DNA of 64,000 nt from Lysobacterales bacterium (GCA_028285525.1 JANQOZ010000004.1:3329-67328), one strand, 5' to 3'. Counted from the stretch's first letter, positions 30,408-55,430 are shown. Made by a program: numbers and translations. The notes: generated from the sequence alone by a model not told the origin.

Positions 30408-30429
30408 AATTGGTGGTGGCTTAATCAAC

Positions 30430-32127
30430 GTGAAGACCGATCGTCGATCCTTTCTTGGCGTCGCGGCGGGGGCGCTGGCAGGTGGGGGCTGTGCTGTCGG
30501 CGGCGACAAAGCACCGCTTGACTCAGACGGCGAGAGCCTGCCGAGTGAACCCTTCACGGTATCCACGGACGCACAAATTGTCCCGACCCAGGGTGGGCGG
30601 GTGCAGGGTTATGTGCGGGGTGGTATCCACATCTATAAGGGTGTTCCCTATGGTGGAGCCACCGGCGGTTCGTTTCGTTTTCTGCCGGTAGGGCCGGTGT
30701 CGCCCTGGGACGGCGTCCGGCGCGCCATGACATTTGGTCCGGTTTGTCCGGCAGGTGAACCGCCGACAGTCGACCTGTCTGCAAATGAGTGGCCTTTCCT
30801 GCTTCCAAACGGCCCTGTCACGAGCGCCATGGAGGACTGCCTGCGAATCAACATCTGGTCGCCCGATCCCGACCCCGAGGCCCGGTTGCCGGTGATGCTC
30901 TGGCTCCACGCCGACGGCTTTGGTGGTGGCTCCAGTCAGGACTTTCTCAGCACCGACGGAGAGGCTCTGGCCCGACAGGAAAACGTTGTCGTTGCGAGCA
31001 TCAACCATCGCGTAGGGCCGCTCGGTTTCACCAACCTCGCCAGCGTTGATGAAAAGCTCGCTGACTCCGGCAACGTCGGCATGCTGGATATTGTGACCGC
31101 GCTCAACTGGGTGCAGCAACACATCGCGGGCTTTGGCGGAGACCCGGGCAACGTCACAGTATTCGGCCAGTCAGGCGGTGGATTCAAGATCTCTGTGCTG
31201 CTCGCGATGCCTGCCGCACGCGGGCTTTTCCACCGGGCCATCATTCAAAGTGGTGCTCGGATCCGGGTCCATGATGAGACCACTTCGGCGGCACTGGGTG
31301 ATGCGCTGGTGAGTTCACTCAAGCTGAAGGAAGACGCCGACCCGCTGGCGGCGCTGCAGAGCCTGAGCCTCGAAGCGTTTTTTGAGGCCGCGCAGGCGGC
31401 CAGCGCCCAGATCCAGGCTGCCGGCGAAAAGCCCAAACGTTGGCAGTCACCTCCCTGGTGGTATGAGCCAACTGCAGGCTTGCCCAGCCTTCCGATCCAG
31501 CCTTTTGATCCACAGGCGCCACAGGTATCGGCGCAGGTGCCCGTGATCTGTGGCAGCACGCTCAACGAACTGCCGCCGAGCATGAATGCGCCGGAAGTCG
31601 AAGACATCACCTGGGATGACCTTCAAGCGCGGCTCGCTCCACAGCTCGCCGATCAAACCGAAGCGGCCATCTCGGCCGCGCGGGCCATCGATGTTCGATG
31701 GACGCCGGCGGACGTGCTGTCCGTCTTGTCCAGTCGCCGGTTTCGAGTACCGGCCGTCACGTTAGCCGATCGGCTGGCGGAGCGGCCTGGCGCGTCGGTT
31801 TGGCAATACCTGTTTTCATGGCAGACGCCGCTTTATAACGGGCGCCCGCGAGCGTTCCACACCAGCGACGTGGCCTTCGTCTTCGCCAACACCGACCTGG
31901 TGGACAGCCAGACCGGTGGCGGTGATCGCCCCCGGCGCCTTGCGAATACGGTCAGTCGAGCCTGGGCTAACTTTGCCCGAACCGGAAACCCCAACGGACC
32001 GGGCGTCCCCTACTGGCCTGCCTATGACAGTGAGGACAGGAACACCATGATCTTTGACGACGAGAGCGTCGCGCGGCCAGCCCAGGACGCCGATCTCCTG
32101 GAAATATTCAGGCGGTTAGATTCGTGA
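30430..32127 (+). CDS. Tat-exported carboxylesterase type B family
   Basis: I prefer the GTG at 30430, giving MKTDRRSFLGVAAGALAGGG (twin-arginine signal). HADGFGGGSS oxyanion region and nucleophile FGQSGGG. Confidence 0.9.
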   Translation: MKTDRRSFLGVAAGALAGGGCAVGGDKAPLDSDGESLPSEPFTVSTDAQIVPTQGGRVQGYVRGGIHIYKGVPYGGATGGSFRFLPVGPVSPWDGVRRAMTFGPVCPAGEPPTVDLSANEWPFLLPNGPVTSAMEDCLRINIWSPDPDPEARLPVMLWLHADGFGGGSSQDFLSTDGEALARQENVVVASINHRVGPLGFTNLASVDEKLADSGNVGMLDIVTALNWVQQHIAGFGGDPGNVTVFGQSGGGFKISVLLAMPAARGLFHRAIIQSGARIRVHDETTSAALGDALVSSLKLKEDADPLAALQSLSLEAFFEAAQAASAQIQAAGEKPKRWQSPPWWYEPTAGLPSLPIQPFDPQAPQVSAQVPVICGSTLNELPPSMNAPEVEDITWDDLQARLAPQLADQTEAAISAARAIDVRWTPADVLSVLSSRRFRVPAVTLADRLAERPGASVWQYLFSWQTPLYNGRPRAFHTSDVAFVFANTDLVDSQTGGGDRPRRLANTVSRAWANFARTGNPNGPGVPYWPAYDSEDRNTMIFDDESVARPAQDADLLEIFRRLDS

Positions 32128-34094
32128 TCAGGCAGATTTCCTTCATCACGCTGCTTTTGGGGGCGAATCTGCTGTTCGACGCCGGGAGTGCTGCGGCAAC
32201 GGAAAGCAACCTGATCAGAGAGTTTATCCCCGCTGCGCCGCCCGCTCTCACGGAGCGGATACGTCAATATCAAAACACGCGGTCAGCGTTGCTGGCCGGC
32301 TACGCGGCTGACGGCCATGGGATGTATGTCATCACGAGGTTCGGCGCGACGCCCCAGCTTCATCATATTCAGTATCCGCAGGGAGCACGAAGACAGCTGA
32401 CCTTTTTTGAAGAACCGGTTGGCGCAGCCGTTCCGTCTCCGTCGGATCCGAATTTGGTTGCGCTCCTGAAGGATCAGGGTGGCGACGAGCGGTTCCAGGT
32501 TTACCTGTACGACCGCCGCACCGGCAAGTCGCGCATGATCTCGAACGGCGAAGGGCGCAAGGCATGGCCTAAATGGTCCAACGCTGGCGATCAGATCGCG
32601 TGGATGACCACCCTGGAGGGCGCTAAACGGGGAATTGTTGTCGCTCACGGAGAAGGTCTTGCGCAGCGCCGCGTTGCCTTTTCCGCAGAGGGGTCGTGGT
32701 TTCCGCTCGCGTGGTCGCCCAACGATGAGCAAATTGCGCTCTATCGCTTTATGTCGCTCGACCGCAGTGAACTGCACCTGCTCGATCCGTTGAGTGGCAA
32801 GGTGAATCAGATCAACGCGGCAGCGGGCCCCATCGGCTATGGGCGTGTCAGTTTCGCCGGAAATTCTGAACACATGTACATCGCCATGGATGAGGGTCGC
32901 GAGTCGCTGGGGCTGTTTAGCTACGAAATCTCGACCGGCAGAAAAACGCTGCTTACTCCGGACGTTGCTTATGACGTTGAGCTCGTCGCAGCGTCGGCCG
33001 ACGGCAGCAGCTTTGCCTTCACCGTCAACCAGGAGGGCCAGTCGGATCTCCGGGTGATCGATGCTCAAAGCATGAATCCCGTTGAAATTCCGGCGTTGCC
33101 TCCCGGGGTCATCAGCAGCCTGGAGTTCGAAAGTGATGGTTCATCACTGGCGGTGACCCTGAACTCCTCCAGCTCTCCCGGCGACGTGCTAGAACTCAAG
33201 CTCGACGAGATTAACGCCCAGTGGCGTTGGTGGACGCAGAGTGAGACTGGAGGCATTCCCAGCAGCACGTTTGTTGCGCCGGAACGACTCCGCTATCCAA
33301 CCTTCGACAAGGTGGACGGAAAAACGCGAACCATACCGGCATTTATCTATCGCCCCGCTTCAACGGGTCCACATCCAGTGGTGGTGTCGATTCACGGCGG
33401 CCCGTCCTTTCAGGCGCGCATGGACTTTTCCTCCCGCCATCAATTGTTGGCCGCGGAATTGGGGATTGCCGTAATCGTTCCGAACGTTCGCGGTTCGACC
33501 GGGTTTGGGAAGTCCTATCAGATGCTCGACGATGGCAGGAAGCGGGAAGACTCAGTCAAGGACATCGGCGCGCTGCTCGACTGGATCTCGACCCAGCCTG
33601 ATCTTGATCAGAACAGGGTGGCAGTGATGGGCACCTCCTACGGTGGCTATATGGTCCTCGCCTCGCTGGTGCACTACAGCGATCGCCTGGCCGGAGGCAT
33701 TGATATTGTCGGCATTTCCAACTTCGTCACCTTTTTGGAGAACACCGCTGAGTATCGCCGCGCCCTGCGTCGGCCTGAATACGGCGACGAGCGTGATCCG
33801 GAGATGCGGTCGTTTTTGCAGCAGATATCGCCGCTAACTAACGCCAACAAGATACGGTCGCCCCTGCTCGTTATTCAGGGGATGAACGACCCCAGAGTGC
33901 CCGCTTCGGAGGCTGAGCAGATTGTCGCCGCCGTTCGAGCCAACGGTCAGCACGCGTGGTATCTCGCGGCCAGGGACGAAGGCCATGGTTTTCAGAAAAA
34001 GGCTAATGTGGACGCCATGATGGAGGCGATTGTGCTGTTCCTCGACGCCGCACTTTTCGCCAAAACACCGAATAGTTCCACGGCCACGCGATAG
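32124..34094 (+). CDS. S9-family serine peptidase (prolyl oligopeptidase / DPP-like) with N-terminal beta-propeller
   Basis: 656 aa with a signal peptide. Nucleophile GTSYGGYM, QGMNDPRVP, EGHGF. GTGA overlap with the upstream gene. Confidence 0.9.
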   Translation: MIRQISFITLLLGANLLFDAGSAAATESNLIREFIPAAPPALTERIRQYQNTRSALLAGYAADGHGMYVITRFGATPQLHHIQYPQGARRQLTFFEEPVGAAVPSPSDPNLVALLKDQGGDERFQVYLYDRRTGKSRMISNGEGRKAWPKWSNAGDQIAWMTTLEGAKRGIVVAHGEGLAQRRVAFSAEGSWFPLAWSPNDEQIALYRFMSLDRSELHLLDPLSGKVNQINAAAGPIGYGRVSFAGNSEHMYIAMDEGRESLGLFSYEISTGRKTLLTPDVAYDVELVAASADGSSFAFTVNQEGQSDLRVIDAQSMNPVEIPALPPGVISSLEFESDGSSLAVTLNSSSSPGDVLELKLDEINAQWRWWTQSETGGIPSSTFVAPERLRYPTFDKVDGKTRTIPAFIYRPASTGPHPVVVSIHGGPSFQARMDFSSRHQLLAAELGIAVIVPNVRGSTGFGKSYQMLDDGRKREDSVKDIGALLDWISTQPDLDQNRVAVMGTSYGGYMVLASLVHYSDRLAGGIDIVGISNFVTFLENTAEYRRALRRPEYGDERDPEMRSFLQQISPLTNANKIRSPLLVIQGMNDPRVPASEAEQIVAAVRANGQHAWYLAARDEGHGFQKKANVDAMMEAIVLFLDAALFAKTPNSSTATR

Positions 34095-35760: not shown

Positions 35761-35882
35761 CTTCGGCGGAAACGCCTCGAGGTCTGGCGTCACTGAAAAA
35801 AAAGAAATTTCCGGCAGGCCTTGTCGGATTATTGACCTGCGATCCGTACCCTGTGTAGACGAGCAACATTCTGAGGTACAGC

Positions 35883-37193
35883 ATGAAATTCGCAGTTAAG
35901 CCCTGGCTAGGGGTGGGTCTTCTTTGCGGCACGTTATGTGGCCAGCTATCGGCGCAGGACCTGCTTCCCACGGATGAAATATTCCGCAGCGACATCGACC
36001 TTGTTCCGGGAACTGATCAGGGTTTCGGTAACGCGCTCGCTATCAGCGGCGACTTTGCCATGGTTGGCGCCTCGCTCAACCTCGGCCAGGACGGACAGGT
36101 CTACCTGCTTCGATACGAAGAAGGCCCGGCACCCAACTGGAGTCTGGTGAAGACACTCGAGCGCGCGGCCGAGCCCAATCTGATCCGGCGGCTGGGAGCG
36201 CGGCTCGCGCTCGACGGAGAGTGGCTAGCCGCGACCAGCAGCAACGCCGGCACCTTCCTCTATCGACGGAACGCAGGAGGTAGCAACAACTGGGGTTTCA
36301 GCCAACGATTGGCGCTGGAGGATAGCGATGACCGTCGTGACCGGGAGCTGGATAACGACGTTTCGATTTCCGGCGACTGGATGGCCGTTGGCGCGGGCCG
36401 CGTTGATTGGCTCGATTTAGGCCCCACTGACGGTAATGATGTAGGTCAGGTGCTTCTTTACCAGCTGGAGGGGGCAACCTGGACTCTAAGACAGGTGTTG
36501 GAAATGCCGCCTTCGGACGTTCAGCGTCTGGCAGGTTTTGGCGAGCGGGTATCGATCAGCGGTGATGTGCTGGCGGTAGGGCTACCGAGCTACAACGTCG
36601 AAGGAGTAAACGAGGTCGGTCAGGCCTACATCTATCAGAACGGTCCCGGCGGCTGGACACTTCGCCGAACGTTGGCTCGGAGTGATTCCTTAAGTAACGC
36701 CCGCTTTGGTGCCGCGGTAGCGGCCACAACCAGCTATGTGGCGGTGGGTGACCTGCAGGGAGGCGGCGACGAAACGCCGTTGGTCAGCAACGACGGATCG
36801 ATCCTCATCTTTGAGCGCAATCTGGGCGGCGTGGATAACTGGGGCCAATCGATCAATCTGCTGCCAAGCCAGCCGGAGTTTATCGGCTCCTTCGGACTTT
36901 CGGTCGGGGTTGTGGGTAACCTGCTCTGGGCCGGCGCTCAGGATGCGGGCTATCTGTTTTCCCGCCGCAACGGCGGTTGGGAAGAGGTGGATCGAAACCC
37001 GGCTCCGATTTTCCCAGACCCGAGTAACACCCGTGAGTACGGTGTGAGCGCAGCCCTGGCGGTTCGCCAGGGGGGACGGCAAATCCTGGCGGTAGCCGGC
37101 GACCCAACCGCGGAAGACAGCACCGATACGCGAACGGGCGCGGCATTTTTCTACGGCTACGACGATCTGCTCTTCGCGGACAGTTTCGAGTAG
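35883..37193 (+). CDS. exported FG-GAP-like repeat beta-propeller protein, C-terminal FADSFE tag
   Basis: 436 aa with a signal peptide. Repeated FG-x-x-[LV]-[AS]-[IV]-S-G-D-x-x-x-V-G blocks (FGNALAISGDFAMVGA, FGERVSISGDVLAVGL, FGAAVAATTSYVAVGD). Ends LLFADSFE. Confidence 0.75.
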   Translation: MKFAVKPWLGVGLLCGTLCGQLSAQDLLPTDEIFRSDIDLVPGTDQGFGNALAISGDFAMVGASLNLGQDGQVYLLRYEEGPAPNWSLVKTLERAAEPNLIRRLGARLALDGEWLAATSSNAGTFLYRRNAGGSNNWGFSQRLALEDSDDRRDRELDNDVSISGDWMAVGAGRVDWLDLGPTDGNDVGQVLLYQLEGATWTLRQVLEMPPSDVQRLAGFGERVSISGDVLAVGLPSYNVEGVNEVGQAYIYQNGPGGWTLRRTLARSDSLSNARFGAAVAATTSYVAVGDLQGGGDETPLVSNDGSILIFERNLGGVDNWGQSINLLPSQPEFIGSFGLSVGVVGNLLWAGAQDAGYLFSRRNGGWEEVDRNPAPIFPDPSNTREYGVSAALAVRQGGRQILAVAGDPTAEDSTDTRTGAAFFYGYDDLLFADSFE

Positions 37194-37294
37194 TCAAAGA
37201 ACCGACAATCCGAAGCTCGCCCAGTTTCTGGTCGTCGATTGAAACCCCGTGGATGGTCACGTTTCCTGCCGGCTGCTGGTGGTAAGATCCATCG

Positions 37295-37921
37295 ATGGAT
37301 CGCACACCGCCGGGCGCTGGCCGCCCTGGCGCGGCCGAGGGGAAAGACGAGGACGTCGACCCGGCCGCGGACAACGCAAGCAACCTGGCTTCGGGGCTGC
37401 CGGCCGATTTGTCGCTGGACGATCTGCTGCCCGTCGCCTATGCGCGGCTGCACCAGCTGGCGGCCTCTGCCCGACGTTCTGTTGGACCTTCGCCCACGCT
37501 CAACACCACCGCGCTGGTCAATGAGCTTTTTCTCAAGCTGGTGGCCAGCCGCTCGCTCGATACGTCCGATGAAAACCGCTTCTACGCCCTGTGTGCCCGC
37601 ACCATGCGCAACATCCTGATCGACCGGATTCGAGCCCGCAAAGCGGGCAAGCGGACGCCGCCGGAGCCAGCCACGGCTGACGGACTCGTATCCGATCAGG
37701 TGGAGTCGCTGCTGGCCGTGGACGATACCCTGAAGCGTCTGGCCGGGCACTCCGAGCGGCTGGTGGAGCTGGTGGAATGTCGGGTATTTGGCGGCTATAC
37801 GCTCGCGGAATGCGCCGACATCTTCGGGGTGACGGAACGCACGGCCCAGCGCGACTGGCAAAAGGCCAAAGCACTGCTCGCCATGGGCATGGAAGGGGCA
37901 CAGCCTGAGTTCCTGGGCTGA
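37295..37921 (+). CDS. ECF sigma-70 factor of the kinase-associated type (TIGR02999 / ECF43-like, from memory)
   Basis: 208 aa. LLPVAYARLHQLAA..., TLNTTALVNELFLKL, MRNILIDRIRARKAGKR and the C-terminal HTH YTLAECADIFGVTERTAQRDWQKAKALL match that subfamily. No anti-sigma gene follows. Confidence 0.88.
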   Translation: MDRTPPGAGRPGAAEGKDEDVDPAADNASNLASGLPADLSLDDLLPVAYARLHQLAASARRSVGPSPTLNTTALVNELFLKLVASRSLDTSDENRFYALCARTMRNILIDRIRARKAGKRTPPEPATADGLVSDQVESLLAVDDTLKRLAGHSERLVELVECRVFGGYTLAECADIFGVTERTAQRDWQKAKALLAMGMEGAQPEFLG

Positions 37922-38012
37922 AATCGAGGCGCTGCTGGACCAGGCGCTCGATCTTCCCGAGGCAGAACGCGCAGACTGGCTGCGTTCGATCACGGGGCAG
38001 CACGATAGCGAA

Positions 38013-40397
38013 GTGGTGGGCCAGGTCGAGGCGCTGCTGGGTGCGCTTGCGCGGCAGGGCGGCGCCCTTGATTCCTTGACGCCAGGCGGCGTACTCGCAG
38101 ACCTGGACGACGCTGAGGCGCTCGATGAGCATCAGCAGATCGGTGCCTGGCGGGTTGGCAAGCCGCTCGGCAGCGGCGGCCAGGGAACCGTCTACGCCGT
38201 TACGCGCAGCGGGGAGGGCTTTGAGCAAAGCGGTGCCCTGAAACTGCTCAACAGCCGATTGGCCAACCCCAGCGCCCTGCGTCGCTTCGAGCGCGAGCGG
38301 CGTCTGCTGGCGAGCCTCGATCATCCGGGCATTCCGACGCTCCTGGACGGCGGCGTTCTGGAGGACGGCTCCCCTTGGCTGGTGGTGGAGCTGGTCCAGG
38401 GCGAAACGCTGTCCAGCCGCCTCAGGCAGGCCCCGCTGCCGCAGGATGAGGCTGTCGATCTCGGGATCAGCCTTTGCGATACGCTGTCCCATGCGCATCA
38501 GAAGCTGATCGCGCATTCGGATCTCAAGCCGGGCAACGTCATGCTGGATCAGGGCGGCCGGGTTCGGCTCCTCGATTTTGGGATTGCCCGGCTGGTCGAC
38601 GACGCATCGCACGCGATCGCCCAAACCGGCCCTGCGTACACCCCCGCCTTTGCCGCGCCGGAACAGATCAATCAGCAGCCGGCCACCACGGCCACGGACA
38701 TTTATGGCGCCGGGGCGGTACTACTCGCTGCGTTGACCGGTCACCCGCCGTTTACCGCTGACAACGTCTCGGCTCAGCTGAATCAGATCCTGCGGGAAGA
38801 GCCACAGTTGCCGGCCCGTCTCCCGACCGATCTCGCCGCCATTATCCTGTGCTGCCTGCGAAAGGAACCGTCGCAACGTTACGCCAGCATCGACGCTCTG
38901 CAGGCGGACCTTCGGGCCTTTCGCGAAGGTCAGGCCGTTTCCGCGCGAGCGGGCGGCTGGCGTTATCGATTCGGCAAGCTTGTCGCTCGACACCGGGCCG
39001 CGAGCGCGGCGCTTGGGCTCCTGCTGATGGGGGGGCTGGCCAGCGCCGGCGTTTACGTAAGCCAGCAAAGCGCAATACGCGAACAGCGCGACCTCGCGCA
39101 GCTTGAAGCAGAGCGCGCGAACAGCATGCTCGATTTTGTGGAAAAAGCGCTGGCCGGGCTGGATTCGAATTTGAACTCGTCGCCGACGGTCGGCCAGTTT
39201 CTGCGGCAGGCGGTCGATCAGTCGGAGGAAATCAGTGATCCCGTGGCCCGGGCCCGTCTCCTGAATCTTCTGGGCCTGGCCCTGCATGGCCAGGGCGAAA
39301 CGGCCGCGGCCACTCAGGCCATGGCCCTGGCGCTGCCTTTGTTGGAGAGTACCGAACTGAGGGGTGGGGATCTCCACGTCAACGCACTCCTGGCGCTGTC
39401 GGACGAGGCGATTGCCAACGGACGGACCGCGGAAGCCATCCGACTGTCTGAGGAAGCTTTGGATCTGGCCCGAAAGGAAAACAGTCCGGTAACGCTCGAG
39501 TACGAGCTTTCGGCGGTCGGACAGCTCTCCTGGGCCCTGGCCGAAAACGGGGAGAACGATCGGGTAAGAGAACTCACTGCCCCTTACCTGGACGCCATGC
39601 AGGAGATCGCCAACGATGAGGAGTTCAACGCCTACGGCATGATTTCAATCATGGCGGGGCGGGTGGCGGAGAGCGACGAGCGTCGCTACGAGCTCGCCAG
39701 CCAGATGCATGATGCGGTGCTCGAAGCTTTCCCCGATCGACCCGCTGTCCACGTGAGGGAAAAGGTGGTGTTGGGTCGAAGGGCGCTGGCGCTCGGCAGT
39801 GCTGCAGAAGCGCTGAGGCTGTTCGAGGAAGCGGAGGCGGCCGCTCGGGCCGCCACGGACGGGGAGCCTTTTGTGGCCTCCTACGCCATCATGCAGCAGG
39901 CGGCCATTCACCGAACCCAGGGTGACTTTGCCCGTTCCTCGGAGCGGCTGGCGGTGGCTACGCCGCTGGTCGCCAGTCAGGGTCAGCGGATGGAGCAGCT
40001 CCTGGCAGCAGAGCAGATTCTGCTGGCCGTCGACGCCAACCAACTCGATAAAGCCTCAAAGCTGCTGGCCGAGCAGAATCAGTCGCCGCCCAACCCCGGG
40101 ACCAGCGCCGCGCAGGCGCTGGGTGAGGCAAAGGCACGACTGTTGTTGGCTCAGGGTGCGGCGGCTGAAGCCGTAAAGGCGGCAGCGCCCGGTTCACTGC
40201 ACGCCCGTATTGCGGGGTTGAGAGAGTCCTGCAGTTTTGTCGATGAGCCGGAGCCGCAGGAGTCTGATATGCCGAGCCTCAGCTACCGGCTGTGGAAAAT
40301 GGCCAGCGCGCGTTGCGCGGGTGAGCCTGCTGAGGCAGGCCAGCTACGTGACGAATTAGTCAGGCAACTGGGCGCTACGCACTGGATGGTTCAATAG
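38013..40397 (+). CDS. membrane Ser/Thr protein kinase (non-RD) with large extracytoplasmic TPR-like domain, paralogue 1
   Basis: Gly loop LGSGGQGTVY, Lys in GALKLL, catalytic loop HSDLKPGN, DFG, APE. Single TM at about residues 331-349, then about 445 aa of helical TPR-like sequence. The conservative start is the GTG at 38013. Conserved N-terminal sequence continues upstream to a CTG at 37905 (see findings). Confidence 0.9.
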   Translation: MVGQVEALLGALARQGGALDSLTPGGVLADLDDAEALDEHQQIGAWRVGKPLGSGGQGTVYAVTRSGEGFEQSGALKLLNSRLANPSALRRFERERRLLASLDHPGIPTLLDGGVLEDGSPWLVVELVQGETLSSRLRQAPLPQDEAVDLGISLCDTLSHAHQKLIAHSDLKPGNVMLDQGGRVRLLDFGIARLVDDASHAIAQTGPAYTPAFAAPEQINQQPATTATDIYGAGAVLLAALTGHPPFTADNVSAQLNQILREEPQLPARLPTDLAAIILCCLRKEPSQRYASIDALQADLRAFREGQAVSARAGGWRYRFGKLVARHRAASAALGLLLMGGLASAGVYVSQQSAIREQRDLAQLEAERANSMLDFVEKALAGLDSNLNSSPTVGQFLRQAVDQSEEISDPVARARLLNLLGLALHGQGETAAATQAMALALPLLESTELRGGDLHVNALLALSDEAIANGRTAEAIRLSEEALDLARKENSPVTLEYELSAVGQLSWALAENGENDRVRELTAPYLDAMQEIANDEEFNAYGMISIMAGRVAESDERRYELASQMHDAVLEAFPDRPAVHVREKVVLGRRALALGSAAEALRLFEEAEAAARAATDGEPFVASYAIMQQAAIHRTQGDFARSSERLAVATPLVASQGQRMEQLLAAEQILLAVDANQLDKASKLLAEQNQSPPNPGTSAAQALGEAKARLLLAQGAAAEAVKAAAPGSLHARIAGLRESCSFVDEPEPQESDMPSLSYRLWKMASARCAGEPAEAGQLRDELVRQLGATHWMVQ

Positions 40398-40430
40398 GTG
40401 GGCCCGCTTAACAAGCTAGACGCCAGGTAA

Positions 40431-42725
40431 GTGTCTTTGATCGGCGCCCTCGCTAGCCTGGATCAAATTGGCGCTTGGCGCATCGGCGACCGGCTGGGCA
40501 GCGGTGGCCAGGGGATGGTCTTTCAGGCTACCCGCCGCGGCGAGGGCTTCCAGCAGCATGGCGCACTCAAGGTGCTGGTCGGCCGGCTGGCCAACGACAG
40601 CGCGCTGCGTCGCTTCAAGCGCGAGCGCCGACTGCTCGCCAGCCTGGATCATCCCGGCATTCCTACGTTGCTCGACGGCGGAGTCCTCGACGATGGCTCG
40701 CCCTGGCTGGTGGTCGAGCTGGTCGATGGTGAAACCCTGTCTAATCGACTGAAGCGCGGGACGCTGTCGCCGACCGATGCCGTTGATCTGGTGATCAGCC
40801 TTTGTCGCACTTTGTCGCACGCCCATCAGCGGCTGATCGCCCATTTAGATCTCAAACCCGGCAACGTCATGCTCGAGCATGGTGGCGGTATCCGACTGTT
40901 GGATTTTGGGGTTGCGCGGTTGCTGGACGACACCTCAGATCACACCCAACAGACCAACTCGGCGTACACGCCTGCGTTCGCGGCGCCAGAGCAAATCGAT
41001 CAGGGGCCTACCGGCACGGCAACCGATATCTATGGGGCTGGCGCGTTGCTCTTCGCCGTGACCGTCGGCCGCCCGCCGGTCAGTGCGGACAATGTCTCGG
41101 CACAGTTTGAGCAGGTGTTGTGGGCAGAGCCCAAGATCCCGACGAGTATCCCGACCGACCTCGCTGCCATCATCCAGAGGTGTCTGCGAAAGGAGCCTGC
41201 CGAACGCTACGCCAGCATCGACTCCCTCGAAGCAGACCTGCATGCCTTCCGCAGGGGACAGCCGGTCAAGGCTCGGGCCGGCGGCTGGCGATACCGCCTC
41301 GCGAGACTTGTTACGCGGCACCGGGCTGCAAGCGCCGTGCTCGGGGTTCTGTTGCTGGGGATGCTGGGCACTGCCGTTGTTTACGTCGGTCAGCAAAGCG
41401 AGATCCGCGAGCAGCGTGACCTGGCGGAACTCGAGGCAGCTCGTGCAAACCGAATGCTGAGCTTTCTAGAGCGGTCTTTAACCAGCCTCAATTCCGATTA
41501 CAGCACCTCGCCTACTGTCGGCCAGTTCTTGCAGAAGGCGGTCGATGAGGTTGGGGAAATCGGCGATCCGGTCGCCCAGGTTCGGATCTTGAGATTGCTC
41601 AGTTCGGCGCTTGACTACCGAGGCGAAACGACGCGCTCTGTGGATGCAATGGCCATGGCTCTACCGCTGATAGAACAAAGCGAACTGCGGGGCGGCGCAG
41701 AGCATGTCAATGCACTGCTGGCAATATCGGACGGGGCGATAGACAACGGTCGCCTCGAGGAAGGTGCGCGGCTGGTAAGCGAGGCCCTAGAACTGGCTAA
41801 CCGGTCGGCAGGCAGCGTTCCGTTCGAGTTAGAGCTTGAGGCCGTGGGGAGGCTGGCGTGGGTGCTCGCCGAGCAAGGAGAAGACGAGAGGGTCAGAGAG
41901 CTCACCAACCCCTATGTGGACGCTATCAAAGACATCTCGAATGAAACTGAACTGAACAGCTACGGCATGATTGCTGCCATTGCCGGCCGCGTGGCGGAGA
42001 GCGATCAACGCGGCTATGAGCTGGCAAGCCGGATGCATGATGCGGTGATGCAGGCCTTCCCGGATCGGCCGGCGGTTCAAGTGCGTGAAAAGGCCATACT
42101 TGCCACCCGCGCGCTGGATCTGGGTCGACTCCACGAGGCGCTGGTGCGGTACGGTGAGGCAGAGGCGGCAGTTCGTGCCAGCACGGACGGCGAACCCTAC
42201 CTGGCGTCGTTCGCCATCATGCAGCAGGCGATCTTCTATCGGATGCAGGGAGATTTTGCCCTTGCCGGTGAAAAGCTGGCTGAAGCTGCGCCGCTGGTCG
42301 CTCCCCAGGGACAGAGGATGAAACACCTGCTGGCAGCCGAGCAGATTCTCCTCGCCGTGGATACCGGCAGGCTGGACGAAGCGGCGGGTCTGCTGGCTAC
42401 ACATGACCGGTCGCCGCCGCCGCCCGGTACCGCCGCCGCAGGGGCGCTCGGCCAGGCCAGGGCGCGCTGGCTGTTGGCCACCGGCGCCACAGCCGAAGAG
42501 GTGAGTGCAGCGGCACCCGCTTCGATGGAGGCCCGTATCGCGCGAGTGCGGGAGTCGTGCAGGGTCAACGAAGCTTCTGACGTTCTGCGCCCAGAGCCTC
42601 CCAGCTTAAGCTACCGGCTTTGGGAGATGGTCAAAGCTCGTTGCGCAGGTGAAAGTGACCTGGCAGACCAGCTGCGCGATGAGCTGGTCGCGGACCTGGG
42701 GTCATCTCATTGGATGACGCGCTAG
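40431..42725 (+). CDS. membrane Ser/Thr protein kinase (non-RD) with extracytoplasmic TPR-like domain, paralogue 2
   Basis: 764 aa with a GTG start. Collinear with paralogue 1 along its full length (LGSGGQGMVF, HLDLKPGN, DFGVA, the same TM and TPR-like tail), but lacks the N-terminal helical extension. Confidence 0.9.
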   Translation: MSLIGALASLDQIGAWRIGDRLGSGGQGMVFQATRRGEGFQQHGALKVLVGRLANDSALRRFKRERRLLASLDHPGIPTLLDGGVLDDGSPWLVVELVDGETLSNRLKRGTLSPTDAVDLVISLCRTLSHAHQRLIAHLDLKPGNVMLEHGGGIRLLDFGVARLLDDTSDHTQQTNSAYTPAFAAPEQIDQGPTGTATDIYGAGALLFAVTVGRPPVSADNVSAQFEQVLWAEPKIPTSIPTDLAAIIQRCLRKEPAERYASIDSLEADLHAFRRGQPVKARAGGWRYRLARLVTRHRAASAVLGVLLLGMLGTAVVYVGQQSEIREQRDLAELEAARANRMLSFLERSLTSLNSDYSTSPTVGQFLQKAVDEVGEIGDPVAQVRILRLLSSALDYRGETTRSVDAMAMALPLIEQSELRGGAEHVNALLAISDGAIDNGRLEEGARLVSEALELANRSAGSVPFELELEAVGRLAWVLAEQGEDERVRELTNPYVDAIKDISNETELNSYGMIAAIAGRVAESDQRGYELASRMHDAVMQAFPDRPAVQVREKAILATRALDLGRLHEALVRYGEAEAAVRASTDGEPYLASFAIMQQAIFYRMQGDFALAGEKLAEAAPLVAPQGQRMKHLLAAEQILLAVDTGRLDEAAGLLATHDRSPPPPGTAAAGALGQARARWLLATGATAEEVSAAAPASMEARIARVRESCRVNEASDVLRPEPPSLSYRLWEMVKARCAGESDLADQLRDELVADLGSSHWMTR

Positions 42726-42737: not shown

Positions 42738-44150
42738 TTACGGCTCAATGTAGGTGACCCTGGCTGATCGGATCTGTAGGTTAACGTCGCTGGCGGTGAA
42801 AACCGTTCCAGCGAGATACAGCGTCCCCGCCTGGTTATTCACAACAATGTTCTGATCTAGAAACGCCAGCGTCCTAACGTTTGCTGACGCACTGGATGTT
42901 TGCCCGCTCAGAATTGGCGCCGAGCTATCGGTTGTATGTTCATTTCGTCGTAGCTGTAGGGTGAGTTGGCCGGCGGAATTGTCGACGTAGAAGAATTCGA
43001 GCGCCGTAATCACCGCGCCGTCAGGCAGTTCCAGCGGCGCAAAAAGATCGGCGAAGGAACCGCTCGATTTTTCCAGGTAAACGCCCCTGAAGTCCTGAAC
43101 CCGCACCGCGCTGGCGGTCGGGTCTGCGAGGTCGAAGGCGGTGTGCGAAATGGCTTTGACTCGAGTGGTTGCCTGGTCAGGTCCTAGAACCAGATCGCCA
43201 TTCGCTTCAACCAGCACCACCCGGTTCCCTGCGCTTGCATGGCTGAGGCCTTCGATTCTCGCATCGCCCTGTACGTGCAGCGTCTGTTCAGGAACAGCGC
43301 CACCCACACCCAACCTAGCCTCCCGATCCAGGATCAGCGAGTAGGAACCATTCCAGACCCGAAACTGGTCGGTCTGCTCATCGAATTCCGTAAACGCTCG
43401 CGGCTGTCCCGCTACGGCGTAGCCGTAAAAAGGTTTTTCCTCCGCCAGCTTGTCGACATCCACATACATACCGCCGAACGGCTCCAGGCTGAACTCGTCA
43501 TAGTCCTGAACCACAAATCTTCCCGCGCCCACCGGGCCCGTTGCTCCGCCCACGCCGGCCCCGCCATCGGTGGTGATGAAGTTCTGGCCGACCGACCAGT
43601 CGCCATCGCCAACCGGCTGGCAGGTCACCTGGCCGCTTTCGCTGATGGCGGTCACCGCCGTGCCCGCGCTGCAGGTGCCCTGAATCCGCTGCTGCACCTG
43701 AGATTCGTCGATCTGCGCACTCCCTACCGCGCCGCTGGCAATTTCGCCCGAGCCCACCGAACCCATGGCGACAAACTCCGCGTGCAGTGCATAAGGTACG
43801 GCGCTGACGGGTTGGCGCGGCAGCAAAGGTTCCAGCGGTTGAGTAGCCACATCCGGACCTACCTCGATCTCCAGCCACAGCTGATCGCCGGCAAAGGGTG
43901 AGATGCCGAAGTCGAGCTGCACGGTGAAGATGCCGTTGACCACCCTAACGTCCTGTAGCTCAATCGCTGAGCCGAGCGGCGAGCCGCCGGTATCTACGTC
44001 GAACAAAGCAAACGAGAAGTCGAACTGGCCGTTCGCCGGTTGCCCTCCCTGCTGCAGCTCACCCTGGTAGCTAAAGGCACTTTCCAGCGGTGCTGCGCCC
44101 GCAATCCTCTGGAAAACCAGCAAAAAAATCAGCAACGTTCCGTGTTTCAT
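42738..44150 (-). CDS. exported fibre/adhesin-like protein with N-terminal YQG module (paralogous module in 46078..47400)
   Basis: Start moved to the ATG at 44150 (MKHGTLLIFLLVFQRIAGAAPLE), preceded by aagggga. The N-terminal about 110 aa aligns with 46078..47400. The C-terminal part looks like a jelly-roll (LELPDGAVITALEFFYVDNS). Confidence 0.75.
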   Translation of the reverse strand: MKHGTLLIFLLVFQRIAGAAPLESAFSYQGELQQGGQPANGQFDFSFALFDVDTGGSPLGSAIELQDVRVVNGIFTVQLDFGISPFAGDQLWLEIEVGPDVATQPLEPLLPRQPVSAVPYALHAEFVAMGSVGSGEIASGAVGSAQIDESQVQQRIQGTCSAGTAVTAISESGQVTCQPVGDGDWSVGQNFITTDGGAGVGGATGPVGAGRFVVQDYDEFSLEPFGGMYVDVDKLAEEKPFYGYAVAGQPRAFTEFDEQTDQFRVWNGSYSLILDREARLGVGGAVPEQTLHVQGDARIEGLSHASAGNRVVLVEANGDLVLGPDQATTRVKAISHTAFDLADPTASAVRVQDFRGVYLEKSSGSFADLFAPLELPDGAVITALEFFYVDNSAGQLTLQLRRNEHTTDSSAPILSGQTSSASANVRTLAFLDQNIVVNNQAGTLYLAGTVFTASDVNLQIRSARVTYIEP

Positions 44151-44153: not shown

Positions 44154-44185
44154 GTATCCCCTTACTTGGTTCATACAGGGGATAC
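44154..44185 (-). promoter_or_regulatory. hairpin sequestering the Shine-Dalgarno of 42738..44150
   Basis: Perfect 9-bp inverted repeat gtatcccct (44154-44162) / aggggatac (44177-44185) with a 14-nt loop. On the minus-strand mRNA the 3' arm AGGGGAUAC is the SD, 3 nt before the AUG. Confidence 0.5.
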
Positions 44186-44276
44186 GCGGTGGCTCAGCGG
44201 AACCCGACACCGCCATCTGGCCGCCAGGCGGGTATACTGCGCGCCCCTTATGCCCGGTCTGACGCCGGAACTGCTC

Positions 44277-46077: not shown

Positions 46078-47400
46078 CTACTGGTCGCAGGCTGTGGCCG
46101 TCAGGAACCCATCTTGCAGCGGCCTGAAATTGAGGTCGTAGTTGTTTCTGCAGATCAGTGAGTCTGGAGTGCCGGTTAACTTGTCGCTGTTGTCGAAGAA
46201 CACCAGTTGGGAGCCGGCAGTGCCAATAGCCCCGAGACCAGTTACCTCGAAGAGTACCGAGTTGAAGCCGAAAGCCGTAGCGAGGCGCGACCGCTGAAAC
46301 CGGGGACTACCATTGATGGCCAGCTGCACGGAGCGCTGTCCACCGCAGATGATACTGTCGTAAACCTCGGGTGATGACTCCGAAAGGAACATGCCGATTC
46401 CCGTACTCGAGCTGCCGGAGCAGGAGAGCTCCGAGCCTCCCCCACCTAGGAAAGTCGAGTCGTAGATGAGCGCCTGCGGAAATCCGGCGGCCGCATTGAC
46501 GCTGGCCAGCCCGGCATTGACGTTAGTAGCTCCCTCCGCTTGCGCTCGGACCCGGCGGATCGTCGGCGCAGCGTCCAGCAGATAAATTGCGGTGTGGCCA
46601 ACTCCACCGACATCGTCAAGGATCACGTTGACGTCTTCAAGCACCGTGCTGAGCGTGACGTCGACTGACATGAATACGCCGATGGAAATAGCCGAGTTCC
46701 CGCGGTTTCTGACGGTCAAGCCGCTGACTTGCGCAGCATCAAGAAGCCGCACGGTCGCCGCATCGGCGGTTTGCGTCCCAGCAGTCCGTTCGCTGACGAT
46801 GGTAGTTGCCTGAATACCGCTGCCTCGCAGTTGCACGTTTCCCGGCACCTCCACCAGGTCAGTCTCCGTAAACTCGCCAGGACCTACCTGCACCAGGTAG
46901 GAGTTTTCCGGGCTGGCGTCGGAGATGCTGTTCAGCGCCGCGGCGACGGATGAGAAATCTCCGCCGACCGTTGCCACCGTGATGAGATTGCCGATAGCCA
47001 GCGTTTCGGCCACGCCAGCGCTCAGTGCGTAGAGGCTGGCGGGAGAAGGTGCGAGCTTGGTCCTAGGCGTGAGTGGCGTAAAAAGCGCGATCTGCCTGCC
47101 GTCGCGAACGCCGACCTCCAGCCAAAGCTGTTCGTCGCTGATACCCGTGAGCCCAAAGTCCAGCTCGATGGAAAAAATACCGTCAACAACGTCTACATCC
47201 TCGACCACCACGGCGGGCGCCAGGGCTGAACCGTTTTCGGCAACGTCAAACAGGGACACCTCAAAATCGAAGGTACCGTTGGCCGGGCGCCCCAGCTGAT
47301 TGAGCTGGCCCTGATAGGTGAAAGCGGTCTCCAGGGGTGCTGCGGAAGCTAAACTCATCACGCACAGCCCGGCGATGAGACAAAGGTAAGTCCGTTTCAT
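46078..47400 (-). CDS. exported fibre/adhesin-like protein: N-terminal YQG module + beta-helix-like C-terminal region
   Basis: 440 aa. Signal peptide MKRTYLCLIAGLCVMSLASA and SD aaggaggg. N-terminus AAPLETAFTYQGQLNQLGRPANGTFDFEVSLFDV... is paralogous to 42738..44150. Confidence 0.75.
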   Translation of the reverse strand: MKRTYLCLIAGLCVMSLASAAPLETAFTYQGQLNQLGRPANGTFDFEVSLFDVAENGSALAPAVVVEDVDVVDGIFSIELDFGLTGISDEQLWLEVGVRDGRQIALFTPLTPRTKLAPSPASLYALSAGVAETLAIGNLITVATVGGDFSSVAAALNSISDASPENSYLVQVGPGEFTETDLVEVPGNVQLRGSGIQATTIVSERTAGTQTADAATVRLLDAAQVSGLTVRNRGNSAISIGVFMSVDVTLSTVLEDVNVILDDVGGVGHTAIYLLDAAPTIRRVRAQAEGATNVNAGLASVNAAAGFPQALIYDSTFLGGGGSELSCSGSSSTGIGMFLSESSPEVYDSIICGGQRSVQLAINGSPRFQRSRLATAFGFNSVLFEVTGLGAIGTAGSQLVFFDNSDKLTGTPDSLICRNNYDLNFRPLQDGFLTATACDQ

Positions 47401-47873: not shown

Positions 47874-49199
47874 GTGCGGATCGGGAATAGGAAAAAGCTG
47901 CCTTGGAAGGCCGCGTTGCTGGCGCTGGCCGTGTCGGCCGGCGCGGCTCACGGCGGAGAATCGGCGGGATTCTGCGATGGGGTCACGCCTCCGGCGCCGG
48001 ATGCGTTCGAGCCTAATAACACCTTCGAAACGGCTTTTCCGATTGCGCCATACACTGAGTTTTCGCAGGTACAAAACTTCAGTGACGATACCGACGTGGA
48101 CTGGTTTTTCTTTCGAGCCTTCGACTTTGCCAGCACTGGCAACGTGTACCCCATAAGTTTCAGGAGCCCGCCTTTTGGCTCGGGTATTTCGATGACCACG
48201 ACCGAGCCTTTTCAAGGTGCCGGTGTATTTATTCGAATTTTCCAGGTCGACGGCAGCAACCTAACCGAAATTGTCCCGCCGGTCGGAGATCCGGGGACGC
48301 TCGAGCTCATCGACCAGGGCTGCATCTTCGAGCCATTTGATATTGAATTCCGTTTCGACACGACGAGCGACTACGCCATCTCGCTCAGCCAGTGTCGAAA
48401 CGAGGGTCTGGACGTGAACGGAAACATGATTGCCGACAACGAGGAATACTGTATCCCGGATGATCCGAGTTTCGGCTTGCATCTGATTCGCCCTGAGATT
48501 TTTATATCGGGTGAGCTTACCGGGACTGTTACTGACGCTATCACTATGCAGCCAATTCCGTTGGCGGCGGTTATTGGCGGAAATGTTGGCTTAACCGCCT
48601 ACAGCAATCCAGCTAATGGCGTTTATTCGGGTATTGCATCGCAAGTCACGGGAGCGACTGCGACCGTGTTTCGACAGGGTTATGTGTCTAGAAACATTCA
48701 GTTTGATTTGGTCCAGGATCAAATAACCCCCTGCGACATCCCACTGATGCCCGAAGGGGTTAGCATGGATTCAGACCTGACGATTAGTAGCCTCAACACA
48801 AGCTCCAACGAGATGTTCTTTGGTGAGTCGTTTAGCGTTAGCACCCAAATCAGTAACAGCGGTGCCGGTGCCTCACCAGCAACCGCGCTGCGCTTCTACC
48901 TCTCGAACGATGCCACGATCGATACCAGCGACACCGAGATCGGCAGCAGCATGATCGCGGGCATCATGGCGGGGCAGATTTCGCCCAACACGTCTTCCGT
49001 CCAGGCCCCGGAGAGCGAAGGCAGCTTCTTCTTTGGTGCGTGCGTGGACACGGTCGATGGTGAAAGCAACGCCACCAATAACTGCTCTGCCTCGGTGCCG
49101 CTCACCATCAACTACCGCTTCCGCGACGGTTTCGAAACGCCGACGGCTCAGCCTGCAGCGCTTCCCAAAGGCGACCCGGCAGCCTGTACACTGCTGTAG
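47874..49199 (+). CDS. exported multidomain protein (PPC-like, carboxypeptidase-regulatory-like and CARDB-like domains)
   Basis: I prefer the GTG at 47874 after aagggg (VRIGNRKKLPWKAALLALAVSAGAAHG). PDAFEPNNTFETAFPI...DDTDVDWFFF is a pre-peptidase C-terminal-like motif. CARDB-like DLTISSLNTSSNEMFFGESFSVSTQISNSG. FRDGFE lies 20 aa before the stop. Confidence 0.75.
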   Translation: MRIGNRKKLPWKAALLALAVSAGAAHGGESAGFCDGVTPPAPDAFEPNNTFETAFPIAPYTEFSQVQNFSDDTDVDWFFFRAFDFASTGNVYPISFRSPPFGSGISMTTTEPFQGAGVFIRIFQVDGSNLTEIVPPVGDPGTLELIDQGCIFEPFDIEFRFDTTSDYAISLSQCRNEGLDVNGNMIADNEEYCIPDDPSFGLHLIRPEIFISGELTGTVTDAITMQPIPLAAVIGGNVGLTAYSNPANGVYSGIASQVTGATATVFRQGYVSRNIQFDLVQDQITPCDIPLMPEGVSMDSDLTISSLNTSSNEMFFGESFSVSTQISNSGAGASPATALRFYLSNDATIDTSDTEIGSSMIAGIMAGQISPNTSSVQAPESEGSFFFGACVDTVDGESNATNNCSASVPLTINYRFRDGFETPTAQPAALPKGDPAACTLL

Positions 49200-49557
49200 A
49201 AGTGACTGGCCTAGTGACTGACTTGGAGATCGGCATTACTCAGATGCTGAAAGGGAGCGCCAACAAAGACCTCGGGTCGCTGCTGTCTATGAACAAGTGC
49301 GTCTACATAGAAACAACGGATCGCATGATCGGTTGAATCAAGTATGAAAGGGCGTTAGGGCGCAATGCGGTCTCATCGATGGAGATTAAACCTTGCGTAT
49401 TTGCTTCCTAAAGGTGACCGAATTGTTCGGTGCGCGGGATCTGACGCTAACTAAGGTCGGTTGTTTCTCAGCGCAATCCGTTCACAAATATCCTAACGAC
49501 AGATGCTCGTGAGAATCAAAGCCGAGTAGAGTTACTTCAACGCTTCGTGTCACTTTT

Positions 49558-50364
49558 TCAGAACCCGGTGATAACGTAATTGGCCCATGAGAAGTCTTGG
49601 GCCTCTCCAGATGTACCGTTTGCGTTCGCATCAATTAACGGCGTCTGTATAGGAATGCCTACTTGTGTTAACCCAGCCGCTACGGTGAAGGCATCTGATA
49701 CGGTTCGCCGCGCAAGCAATCCTTCAAGGAAGCGCATTTCAAAAGAAACAGAGCCGCGAGCAATGTAGTAGGAAGGATTATCTTCACCTGCTGCAGTCAT
49801 GATGGTTGGAGAGACCCATGTGCCGGAGGACCATGTCGGGAATATCCCAGCTGATCTCGCTTGGAACGTTGAGAGTAAACCCCCTCCAAAACAGGAGCCT
49901 ACAAGCATCGTCACTTTGCCCGTTACCCGTTGTTGCAAGTCAATTACTAGGTCGCTCAGATCCGTGAACAAAAGACTTTCCGACGAGTTTAGGCGGATTG
50001 AGGTGCTGCCTCCATGAGCGACGATAAACACAAAAACGTCTTTTGTTGTCGGTGGAACACCTGCGAACGCCGAAAAAACACTGGCGAGGTTCGCCAACCC
50101 GTCCGCGTTGGCAATCGAACTATCGTTTACCAAATAAATTATGTCTGAGGAAGAAAAGCCTAAGTCACGGAATGTTTGGAAACCGAAAGTCGCAATACGC
50201 CTTCGAGTATCAATTAGCGAGTCAGAACCGGGAGGGCCCGAACCTTCCACCCCGCTGTCGATAATCAAGACCTGTGACTGAGCAGAAGCGACGTTTAGCA
50301 CGCTTGTCGCAATTCCCAAAATCATACATAACGCGCAAAGGTATAGTTGTGTTTTGGTGTTCAT
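49558..50364 (-). CDS. exported legumain-like cysteine peptidase (family C13, clan CD)
   Basis: The ATG at 50364 overlaps the upstream stop (ATGA). Signal peptide present. VFIVAHGG and MLVGSCFGG are 41 residues apart, matching the His/Cys dyad spacing of legumain as I recall it. The gene is about 50% GC. Confidence 0.7.
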   Translation of the reverse strand: MNTKTQLYLCALCMILGIATSVLNVASAQSQVLIIDSGVEGSGPPGSDSLIDTRRRIATFGFQTFRDLGFSSSDIIYLVNDSSIANADGLANLASVFSAFAGVPPTTKDVFVFIVAHGGSTSIRLNSSESLLFTDLSDLVIDLQQRVTGKVTMLVGSCFGGGLLSTFQARSAGIFPTWSSGTWVSPTIMTAAGEDNPSYYIARGSVSFEMRFLEGLLARRTVSDAFTVAAGLTQVGIPIQTPLIDANANGTSGEAQDFSWANYVITGF

Positions 50365-51074: not shown

Positions 51075-51392
51075 GTTTCGGGCGAAGGTTTCATTCGCGA
51101 GCTTTCGCGTGCAACTGCCGATTTCGCGAAGGGTAGCAGTAAAAACAAAAACCTAGCAATATTTAAGCCCGATAAAGTTGGGTGTCGGTACCGACGGGGT
51201 GCCCCACCAGATGCTAGAGCGATCGTTCATCGACCACCACGGTTACGGAGCGAATTCAAAGCGTTGGTGCGGCTATCTGCCAAAACAACAGACTTGCTCG
51301 CTGGGCAGAGGCTTTTGCTTTCCCTAAGCTAGTGTTCAAGTTGCGAAGTCTCGTGAAGAACCCAGCCAACTCCCTGAACTAGTTATCCGTCA

Positions 51393-54440: not shown

Positions 54441-54619
54441 GTTTCTCCCGACTAACCGGTCTTATTCGAGCTTACGTAACCGAGCCCGGCGAACGACAGG
54501 TCGAATCAGGTTTTTTCCGGATATTTCCGATTTTTTGAATCCGAATGGCCCGTTGCTGCGAATAACCATCTGTGCACACCCAAACTTTCCCTACAAACGC
54601 TGTCAGGAGACACAAAAAG

Positions 54620-55405: not shown

Positions 55406-55430
55406 TTTTGCGCATGACGCTTCAAGAACT

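Follow-up and report, generated by a model that had tools for sequence, protein, structure and literature searches.

An ECF43-type sigma factor gene followed by two tandem non-RD receptor kinase genes in a Lysobacterales bacterium: a probable further example of the kinase/sigma phospho-switch

Background

Direct activation of a sigma factor by Ser/Thr phosphorylation is experimentally known in few systems, namely EcfP/PknT, one Hyphomonas pair and EcfK/PknS. In the extracytoplasmic function (ECF) sigma factors of group ECF43, region 2.2 has the consensus QTTA or STTA. In EcfP of Vibrio parahaemolyticus it reads STTA, and the second Thr is phosphorylated by PknT (Iyer et al. 2020); as far as the accounts in PMC8999054 and PMC13147305 go, EcfP is intrinsically inactive until phosphorylated, and its regulon gives polymyxin resistance. 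EcfK, an ECF43 sigma factor, and PknS, the Hanks-type receptor kinase that is paired with it, control a type VI secretion system (T6SS) in Xanthomonas citri; PknS phosphorylates EcfK at T51 and at linker residues including T106, and the phosphate gives the charge for β′ binding (PMC13147305). Here we analyze a locus from a Lysobacterales bacterium in which a sigma gene is followed by two tandem paralogous kinase genes, K1 and K2, within a stretch of 64,000 nucleotides that we call the window (GCA_028285525.1, JANQOZ010000004.1:3329-67328). The locus is probably a further example of the known kinase/sigma phospho-switch, here with a duplicated kinase gene, and not a new type of system; from its sequence features we consider it likely that it represents an ECF43-type module whose sigma factor is activated by phosphorylation. 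EcfK/PknS by architecture and EcfP/PknT by the uncharged region 2.2 are its closest characterized relatives. Different from both are the two tandem kinases, their non-RD catalytic loops, the loss of an N-terminal module in K2 and the probable non-canonical start of K1.

An initial annotation, made from the sequence alone, had reported three open reading frames (ORFs) at this place, and all three are present on the plus strand:

37295-37921, plus strand: sigma gene, 208 aa
37905..40397, plus strand: K1 kinase gene, 830 aa if begun at CTG 37905 (794 aa from GTG 38013 in automatic calls)
37905-38084, plus strand: K1 three-helix module
~38148-38924, plus strand: K1 kinase domain
38514-38522, plus strand: K1 catalytic-loop HSD
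38997-39059, plus strand: K1 transmembrane (TM) segment
39063-40394, plus strand: K1 sensor
40431..42725, plus strand: K2 kinase gene without the N-terminal module, 764 aa from GTG (762 aa in the public annotation)
40842-40850, plus strand: K2 catalytic-loop HLD
41325-41387, plus strand: K2 TM segment
41391-42722, plus strand: K2 sensor

Homologue counts given below refer to the 120 best sigma homologues and the 120 nearest kinase homologues. A genome scan gave two useful related loci, L001 and L002, and the other contexts were obtained through exact-protein look-ups. L010, L001 and L015 belong to other assemblies of the window's lineage. L002 comes from a metagenome-assembled genome (MAG) labelled Lysobacterales, which we take to be the order that includes Xanthomonas, and its kinase is 52% identical to that of the window. 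A metagenome scan with the kinase alignment yielded five loci, all at no more than 38% identity, and no close relatives; an Rfam scan and a tRNA scan were both empty.

The sigma factor

The sigma gene product matches the Pfam family PF07638 (Sigma70_ECF, E 2e-28) over residues 42-196, with the two-domain architecture of sigma-2 plus sigma-4, and scores 147.6 bits with the NCBIfam model TIGR02999 (Sig-70_X6), above the cutoff of 126.15. Its region 2.2 (residues 70-73, 37502-37513) reads NTTA in the context L-N-T-T-A-L-V-N-E, replacing the acidic DAED of canonical ECF sigma factors, which have D-A-E-D-L-V-Q-E at that region. The window provides an internal contrast in a canonical ECF sigma factor (55445-56095) that has ADAEDAAQE and whose gene is followed by one for an RskA-type anti-sigma factor. 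Thr72 (37508-37510), the predicted phospho-acceptor, is kept in all 120 homologues, and Thr71 in 114 of them. The TIGR02999 match, NTTA in place of DAED and the invariant Thr72 agree with the kinase-linked ECF features that had been attributed to this protein, and point to a sigma factor of the kinase-activated ECF43 type, with the signature seen in EcfP/PknT and EcfK/PknS. When EcfK T51 is aligned to Thr72, an offset of 21 residues, T106 falls on Thr127 of the linker (37673-37675), which is hence a candidate equivalent of T106; the alignment column is E, D or T in 84 of the 120 homologues, matching the published pattern. The ratio of nonsynonymous to synonymous divergence (omega) of the sigma gene against L001 is 0.014.

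The absence of an adjacent anti-sigma gene, also claimed initially, holds: no anti-sigma domain was matched among the products of the neighbouring genes in Pfam scans. All related loci sampled have a Hanks kinase gene abutting or overlapping that of sigma, with an anti-sigma gene never between them, so that the kinase-sigma synteny is conserved.

The two kinases

K1 and K2 match the Pkinase family with E values of 5e-41 and 7e-40, respectively. Both keep the Gly-loop, the GALK Lys, the catalytic Asp and Asn, DFG and APE, so that the kinase domains are complete in their essential residues save for the arginine of the HRD motif: the catalytic loop is IAHSDLKPGN for K1 and IAHLDLKPGN for K2. The HSD and HLD loops were thus correctly noticed in the initial annotation, yet they are clade-specific, with HRD in 111 of the 120 nearest kinase homologues and Arg making up at least 90% of the column in alignment A3. 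All K2 copies have HLD, as do the single kinase of L002 and the K1 orthologues from L001, L015 and another MAG, and HSD occurs only in K1 of the window strain. The non-RD loops are therefore a peculiarity of a small clade and not a family-wide feature. Since both L002 and the K1 orthologues in the lineage's other genomes have HLD, the loss of the arginine predates the duplication, and the position has since been drifting. Non-RD bacterial Hanks kinases such as PknG work without activation-loop phosphorylation. From such general knowledge of kinases, the loss of the arginine would fit enzymes that do not read an activation-loop phosphate through it, and, both kinases being non-RD, activation-loop phosphorylation is probably not needed by either.

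A single hydrophobic segment, with clustered basic residues ahead of it and about 445 aa after it, is present in each kinase. An AlphaFold2 (AF2) model of K1, with a mean predicted local distance difference test (pLDDT) score of 87.7, shows the kinase fold, one TM helix and an ectodomain composed entirely of α-hairpin repeats, where pLDDT is mostly above 90. Its kinase part superposes on PknA and PknB with template-modelling scores, TM(target), of 0.87-0.88; in a Foldseek search with full-length K1, the kinase domain dominated the matches and the sensor was uninformative. Of the earlier description of two collinear proteins with one TM helix and a TPR-like domain of about 445 aa, the layout and, through the K1 model, the α-hairpin repeats stand, and the likeness to TPRs is weak by sequence (TPR_12, E 3e-4, under the Pfam cutoff).

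The two proteins align without gaps except at the N-terminus, at 66% identity over the whole length; the kinase domain taken alone is 72% identical and the sensor (the C-terminal 445 residues) 62%. Between them, nonsynonymous divergence (dN) is 0.19 for the kinase domain and 0.29 for the sensor, with omega of about 0.17-0.18 in both. The sensors are thus indeed more diverged than the kinase domains, as had been judged by eye, but the difference is only moderate. Against L001, omega is 0.096 for K1 and 0.165 for K2 (0.13 for the K2 kinase domain), and both domains are constrained; K1 and K2 are both under purifying selection.

Duplication and synteny

The tandem kinase genes are flanked by a gene for an exported FG-GAP propeller protein upstream of sigma and by fib1, a gene for a fibre-like exported protein, downstream of K2 (both described below). 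The order FG-GAP/sigma/K1/K2 is found in the window and in the three other assemblies of its lineage. L010 has sigma and K1 proteins identical to those of the window, and the K1 of L001 is 91% identical. In L015 the K1 and K2 genes are of the same lengths, and fib1, DeaD and the second fibre-like gene, fib2, follow downstream too. L002 has FG-GAP, sigma, a single kinase, a fib1 orthologue and DeaD, and L011, with a sigma factor 55% identical, has FG-GAP, sigma and one kinase. One kinase adjoins sigma in L012-L014, L016, L017 and L020-L021 as well. In L018 and L019 a second, unrelated kinase lies two genes beyond the sigma-adjacent one. The duplication is thus lineage-specific, and nearly all other sampled loci have one adjacent kinase.

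The identity between K1 and K2 (66%) exceeds that of either copy to the kinase of L002 (52% and 49%), which places the duplication after the split from L002. The duplication is old: K1 and K2 are separated by a synonymous divergence (dS) of 1.2-1.6, whereas the value from the window to L001 is 0.25-0.5. Recent gene conversion between K1 and K2 is rejected on the same dS values.

Two further PF07638 contexts were observed among the relatives. In L012 (4690-7696, minus strand), one PF07638 sigma gene is followed by that of a 799-aa protein with Trans_reg_C and TPR domains. In L018 and L019 (10352-14621), an FHA/sigma-54 activator comes after the sigma-kinase pair, along with the second kinase, of 1038 aa.

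The K1 start and the N-terminal module

The initial annotation had ascribed an N-terminal extension to K1 only. K2 does lack the module, having stop codons immediately upstream and its start 13 residues ahead of strand β1, but for K1 the called start at 38013 falls inside a conserved domain. Upstream of this GTG the K1 frame remains open and encodes LSSWAEIEALLDQALDLPEAERADWLRSITGQHDSEV; read from CTG 37905, it encodes LSSWAEIEALLDQALDLPEAERADWL.

37891..37907, plus strand: probable K1 start, with a Shine-Dalgarno (SD)-like GGAAGGGG (37891-37898) and then CTG 37905 within the last sigma codons

The SD-like element lies 6 nt ahead of the CTG, and the two are conserved in L001 (GGAAGGAG) and L015. 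In the homologues ATG or GTG stands at the position of this CTG, 2-3 codons ahead of a conserved Trp and overlapping the sigma stop (ATGA or GTGA); no comparable SD was found upstream of GTG 38013. The window, L001 and L015 all keep the 36 codons upstream of 38013 intact and in frame, and the partial gene of a further MAG retains the stretch. The residues of these codons align one-to-one with the N-termini of the homologues, the codon-position GC of 37923-38012 is of the coding type, and in the AF2 model the upstream stretch forms the first two helices of a well-packed three-helix bundle with pLDDT of 82-96. K1 is hence probably a CTG-initiated protein of 830 aa, its translation probably coupled to that of sigma, and, because of this non-canonical start codon, automatic annotation probably cuts it short by 36 residues.

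The alternative is that K1 truly starts at GTG 38013, the ancestral start having been lost by a change of ATG or GTG to CTG, with the module non-functional in both kinases and dispensable in the clade. ATG, GTG and TTG are all absent from the K1 frame between the upstream stop and 38013, all public annotations give 794 aa, and K2 indicates that the clade tolerates loss of the module. We nevertheless judge this start rather unlikely, given the intact, homologue-aligned and apparently well-folded upstream stretch and a CTG that sits, with its conserved SD, exactly at the start site of the homologues. The K1 frame is also open for 29 codons before the sigma stop with no canonical start, as it would be if a sigma-kinase fusion arose by programmed frameshifting in the last part of the sigma gene. 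Passing from the sigma frame to that of K1 requires a +1 (or -2) shift, no slippery site was seen in 37833-37921, and the homologues have ordinary overlapping start and stop codons; we reject such a fusion as extremely improbable.

The N-termini of the homologues nearly all read M-x-x-(x)-W-x-x-I-E-x-L-L/F-D-x-x-L-D-L-P-x-x-E-R, within an extension of about 60-80 residues. A profile search with the module returned 67,522 representative proteins at E ≤0.001. Nine of the ten longer hits scanned with Pfam are kinases in which, irrespective of the sensor, the module immediately precedes the kinase domain; the tenth, of 205 aa, has no Pfam match. Among the 120 nearest kinase homologues, only K2-type proteins or truncated calls of K1-type proteins are without the module. 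It corresponds to no family in Pfam or NCBIfam, and a fold search was uninformative.

Many of the hits have two copies of the module, and in P0241 (1156 aa) ten matched module stretches occur in tandem ahead of the kinase domain.

Comparison with characterized systems

The present locus shares with EcfK/PknS the sigma family, the phospho-acceptor Thr of region 2.2 and, in Thr127, a candidate second site corresponding to T106. The N-terminal helical extension, kinase domain, single TM helix and periplasmic TPRs of PknS reproduce the layout that K1 would have if started at the CTG, and the alignment with the 364-residue "kinase domain protein" of PDB 9eed_A, presumably PknS 1-364, begins at residue 2 of K1. 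PknS differs in having a canonical HRD motif and being encoded by a single gene, in contrast to the two tandem non-RD paralogues found here, of which K1 is further set apart by lacking a canonical start codon. Region 2.2 of EcfK, QATE, keeps one acidic residue, and the T51A substitution is tolerated, whereas NTTA, as in EcfP, has none. The output of EcfK/PknS is the T6SS cluster; for the present locus, an FG-GAP propeller that is exported and a fibre-like protein are predicted.

The resemblance to EcfP/PknT lies in an xTTA motif without acidic residues (STTA versus NTTA), the adjacent kinase gene and the absence of an anti-sigma gene. That system has one kinase where two occur here, and a regulon resembling the polymyxin-resistance one is not seen at this locus. 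A more distant parallel is the action of Mycobacterium tuberculosis PknB on SigH/RshA, which likewise involves phosphorylation of a sigma factor by a receptor kinase of the Hanks fold; PknB and PknA are the best sequence and fold matches. SigH, however, is not an ECF43 protein, has an anti-sigma factor, and its phosphorylation is without known effect on its activity (PMC13147305). The sensors of PknB-type kinases are PASTA or other domains, unlike the α-repeat solenoid found here.

Promoters, operon and candidate regulon

The neighbouring genes and the predicted control elements are as follows:

35822..35850, plus strand: predicted ECF-type promoter P1, TGTCGGATTATTGACCTGCGATCCGTACC, with -35 TGTCGG and -10 CGTACC, ending 33 nt upstream of the FG-GAP ATG
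35883..37193, plus strand: FG-GAP beta-propeller gene, 436 aa, exported, with signal peptide and C-terminal LLFADSFE (PF14312 FG-GAP_2, E 3e-20); first gene of the putative operon
37280..37288, plus strand: candidate extended -10, TGGTAAGAT (TGn-TAAnnT), ending 6 nt before the sigma ATG
42738..44150, minus strand: fib1, fibre-like exported protein, 470 aa from ATG 44150, with signal peptide; convergent with K2; predicted sigma target
44181..44209, minus strand: predicted ECF-type promoter P2, TGTCGGGTTCCGCTGAGCCACCGCGTATC, ending 31 nt upstream of the fib1 ATG
46078-47400, minus strand: fib2, second fibre-like exported protein, without an ECF-type promoter

An alignment of the regions upstream of the FG-GAP genes yields TGTCSG-N17-CGWWCC, with the same spacing in the window, L001, L002 and L010, and the P1 motif stands at the same place in L001, L015, L002 and L010. 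In L013, L014 and L016 it is found upstream of the two exported-protein genes lying before sigma, and in L017 a similar motif adjoins a 41%-identical sigma factor with its kinase. The relaxed motif TGTCSG-N17-CGWWYC has exactly 2 matches in the 64-kb window against 0.24 expected, a number reached in 2 of 100 shuffles. One of these matches is P1 and the other, P2, recurs upstream of the fib1 orthologues of L015 and L002 with the same CGTATC as its -10. Conservation of both promoter sites extends to orthologous loci whose kinases are as low as 52% identical. A position weight matrix scan of the whole window gave no sites beyond P1 and P2. The proposal that the flanking genes form the regulon is therefore supported, through the shared and conserved motif, for FG-GAP and fib1, and unsupported for fib2 and the CARDB gene. 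The literature yielded no consensus for ECF43 promoters to set beside this motif.

Since a scan found no terminator-like sites in the gaps between FG-GAP, sigma, K1 and K2, an autoregulated four-gene operon is the simplest reading, and it appears likely that FG-GAP-sigma-K1-K2 is such an operon, with fib1 as one further target. Orthologues of the FG-GAP gene lie directly upstream of sigma in L001, L015, L002 and L011. Compared with its counterpart in L001 (7860-9182), the gene shows dS of 1.66 and 77% aa identity, as against dS of 0.25-0.5 and 91-99.5% aa identity for the adjacent sigma and kinase genes, which suggests allelic replacement or recombination of this exported-protein gene. For fib1, public gene calls likewise give 470 aa, and the L002 orthologue is 45% identical. 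The fib1 and fib2 proteins have in common an N-terminal domain of 125 aa with 47% identity, beginning APLE[ST]AF[ST]YQG, and neither matches Pfam or NCBIfam.

A second, more speculative element precedes sigma itself. At an unchanged distance from the ATG, the candidate extended -10 listed above reads TGGTAATAT in both L001 and L015, and L002 has TGCTAAACT; the sigma ATG has no SD in the 37280-37294 region. A conserved -10-like element 6 nt from an ATG without SD would suggest a leaderless sigma transcript, and the element could speculatively be a basal promoter for such an mRNA; a sigma-70 scan missed it.

Proposed mechanism and alternatives

By homology with EcfP/PknT and EcfK/PknS, the sigma factor would be made in an inactive form, its region 2.2 lacking the acidic residues of DAED that normally bind the β′ clamp helices of RNA polymerase. 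A transmembrane Hanks kinase would sense a periplasmic cue via its large α-helical repeat domain and phosphorylate Thr72, and possibly the linker Thr127, thereby supplying the missing negative charge. The resulting holoenzyme would then read TGTCGG-N17-CGTAyC promoters: P1 would drive the operon of FG-GAP, sigma, K1 and K2, creating positive feedback, and P2 would drive the convergent fib1, with basal expression perhaps coming from the weak sigma-70-type promoter directly ahead of sigma. K1 would represent the ancestral architecture, with the module, and would probably be translated from the CTG overlapping the end of sigma. K2 would be an old tandem copy under selection that has kept the core, anchor and sensor and lost the module. 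As our best guess, K1 would be the main kinase for sigma and K2 would provide a second, related periplasmic input, acting on sigma directly or through K1.

How the two kinases divide the work can be read in other ways, and K2 may also serve other substrates. The two could be equivalent and independent sensors, each answering to a periplasmic ligand of its own and directly phosphorylating the one sigma factor, which corresponds to the two inputs converging on one sigma factor proposed initially. This is a contender that we take seriously while placing it short of an even chance: the catalytic core, TM segment and sensor are complete in both, selection acts on the kinase and sensor domains of both, the sensors have diverged more than the kinase domains, and the operon has only one sigma gene; yet K2 is without the module that nearly all homologues have, and sensors that are collinear and 62% identical do not require different ligands. 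K2 could instead be a modulatory partner, tuning K1 as part of a hetero-oligomer held together by the sensor, TM or kinase domains, or phosphorylating K1, and leaving K1 alone to engage sigma via the module. The loss of the module is specific to K2, its placement directly ahead of kinase domains with diverse sensors fits a substrate-side or regulatory-side role of the module, and studied receptor kinases of this class act as dimers (PMC13147305). We hold this to be possible though on balance somewhat unlikely: the fold search with the module was uninformative, and K2 keeps all its catalytic residues, which a pure scaffold would not need and which are compatible with trans-phosphorylation. The boldest form of the idea, in which the module is a sigma-recognition element, the CTG-translated K1 is the sole direct sigma kinase and K2 is a co-receptor acting via K1, so that the two constitute a heteromeric non-RD pair, seems to us distinctly unlikely.

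Two further explanations would change the place of the kinases altogether. Hanks kinases often have multiple substrates (PMC13147305), and K1 and K2 might act on other proteins, with sigma under an unlinked anti-sigma factor or under transcriptional control only. A region 2.2 devoid of acidic residues with an invariant Thr, the overlap of the sigma and kinase genes in the homologues and the synteny kept in distant relatives make this improbable. That K2 is a decaying duplicate or pseudokinase, as its N-terminal truncation and the loss of the HRD arginine could be taken to mean, is largely refuted and in our view highly improbable: its omega against L001 is low, its catalytic residues are all kept, its ORF is full-length in at least three genomes, and the non-RD loop predates the duplication.

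Against the phospho-switch preferred here, with K1 as primary kinase, several points have to be set. The case for it is built wholly from sequence and predicted structure. The label ECF43 relies on proxies, namely the family models, region 2.2 and the kinase adjacency; the loci that yielded the promoter motif are also those where it was counted, making its support partly circular; and CTG is a very weak initiator in bacteria where this has been studied. The different roles proposed for K1 and K2 are conjecture. A Ser/Thr (PP2C-type) phosphatase gene that would reset the switch was not found in the window in Pfam scans of nearly all large ORFs.

A paralogous pair with and without the N-terminal extension beside a single sigma factor makes the role of the extension testable. 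The clade with its dispensable HRD arginine bears on how receptor kinases are switched, and the predicted promoter motif together with a very small predicted regulon offers simple read-outs.

Other features of the window

The canonical DAED sigma factor mentioned above is part of a conventional sigma/anti-sigma pair (54572-56793), in which a fasciclin-domain gene is followed by the ECF sigma gene and then by the RskA-type anti-sigma gene.

Several exported proteins bear a motif of the form [L]LF-x-D-[SG]-F-E at or near the C-terminus, seen as LLFADSFE*, YRFRDGFE, LLFSDSFEQQ*, LFKDGFED* and LFSDGFEAVPIR* (the asterisk marking the stop). The initial annotation had described the flanking exported proteins as tagged, which is correct for FG-GAP with its LLFADSFE and incorrect for the fibre-like proteins. 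In the window, the motif is located at:

37173-37190: FG-GAP protein
49119-49136: CARDB protein
52943-52926, minus strand: 507-aa ORF (52917-54440)

It is also present in relatives, in L011 (1192-2463) and L013 (4472-5902). No Pfam or NCBIfam model matches the C-termini of the motif-bearing proteins, and the motif may be a sorting or anchoring tag of the lineage.

A segment of about 8.4 kb (25809-34094), between the DUF1499 and cupin genes, is absent from the otherwise syntenic L015 and L001. This segment, which has the look of an inserted cassette for nutrient uptake, holds genes for an RpiR regulator, a carboxylesterase, an S9 peptidase and a TonB-dependent receptor as well as a 179-aa ORF. 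The region 48000-52000 has a GC content of 0.52-0.53 against about 0.61 and contains the CARDB gene, two ORFs without a strong Pfam match (one with a weak Peptidase_C13 match) and the start of a PLD-like gene; its counterpart in L015 is a gene for a 1293-aa NHL/Peptidase_C13 protein.

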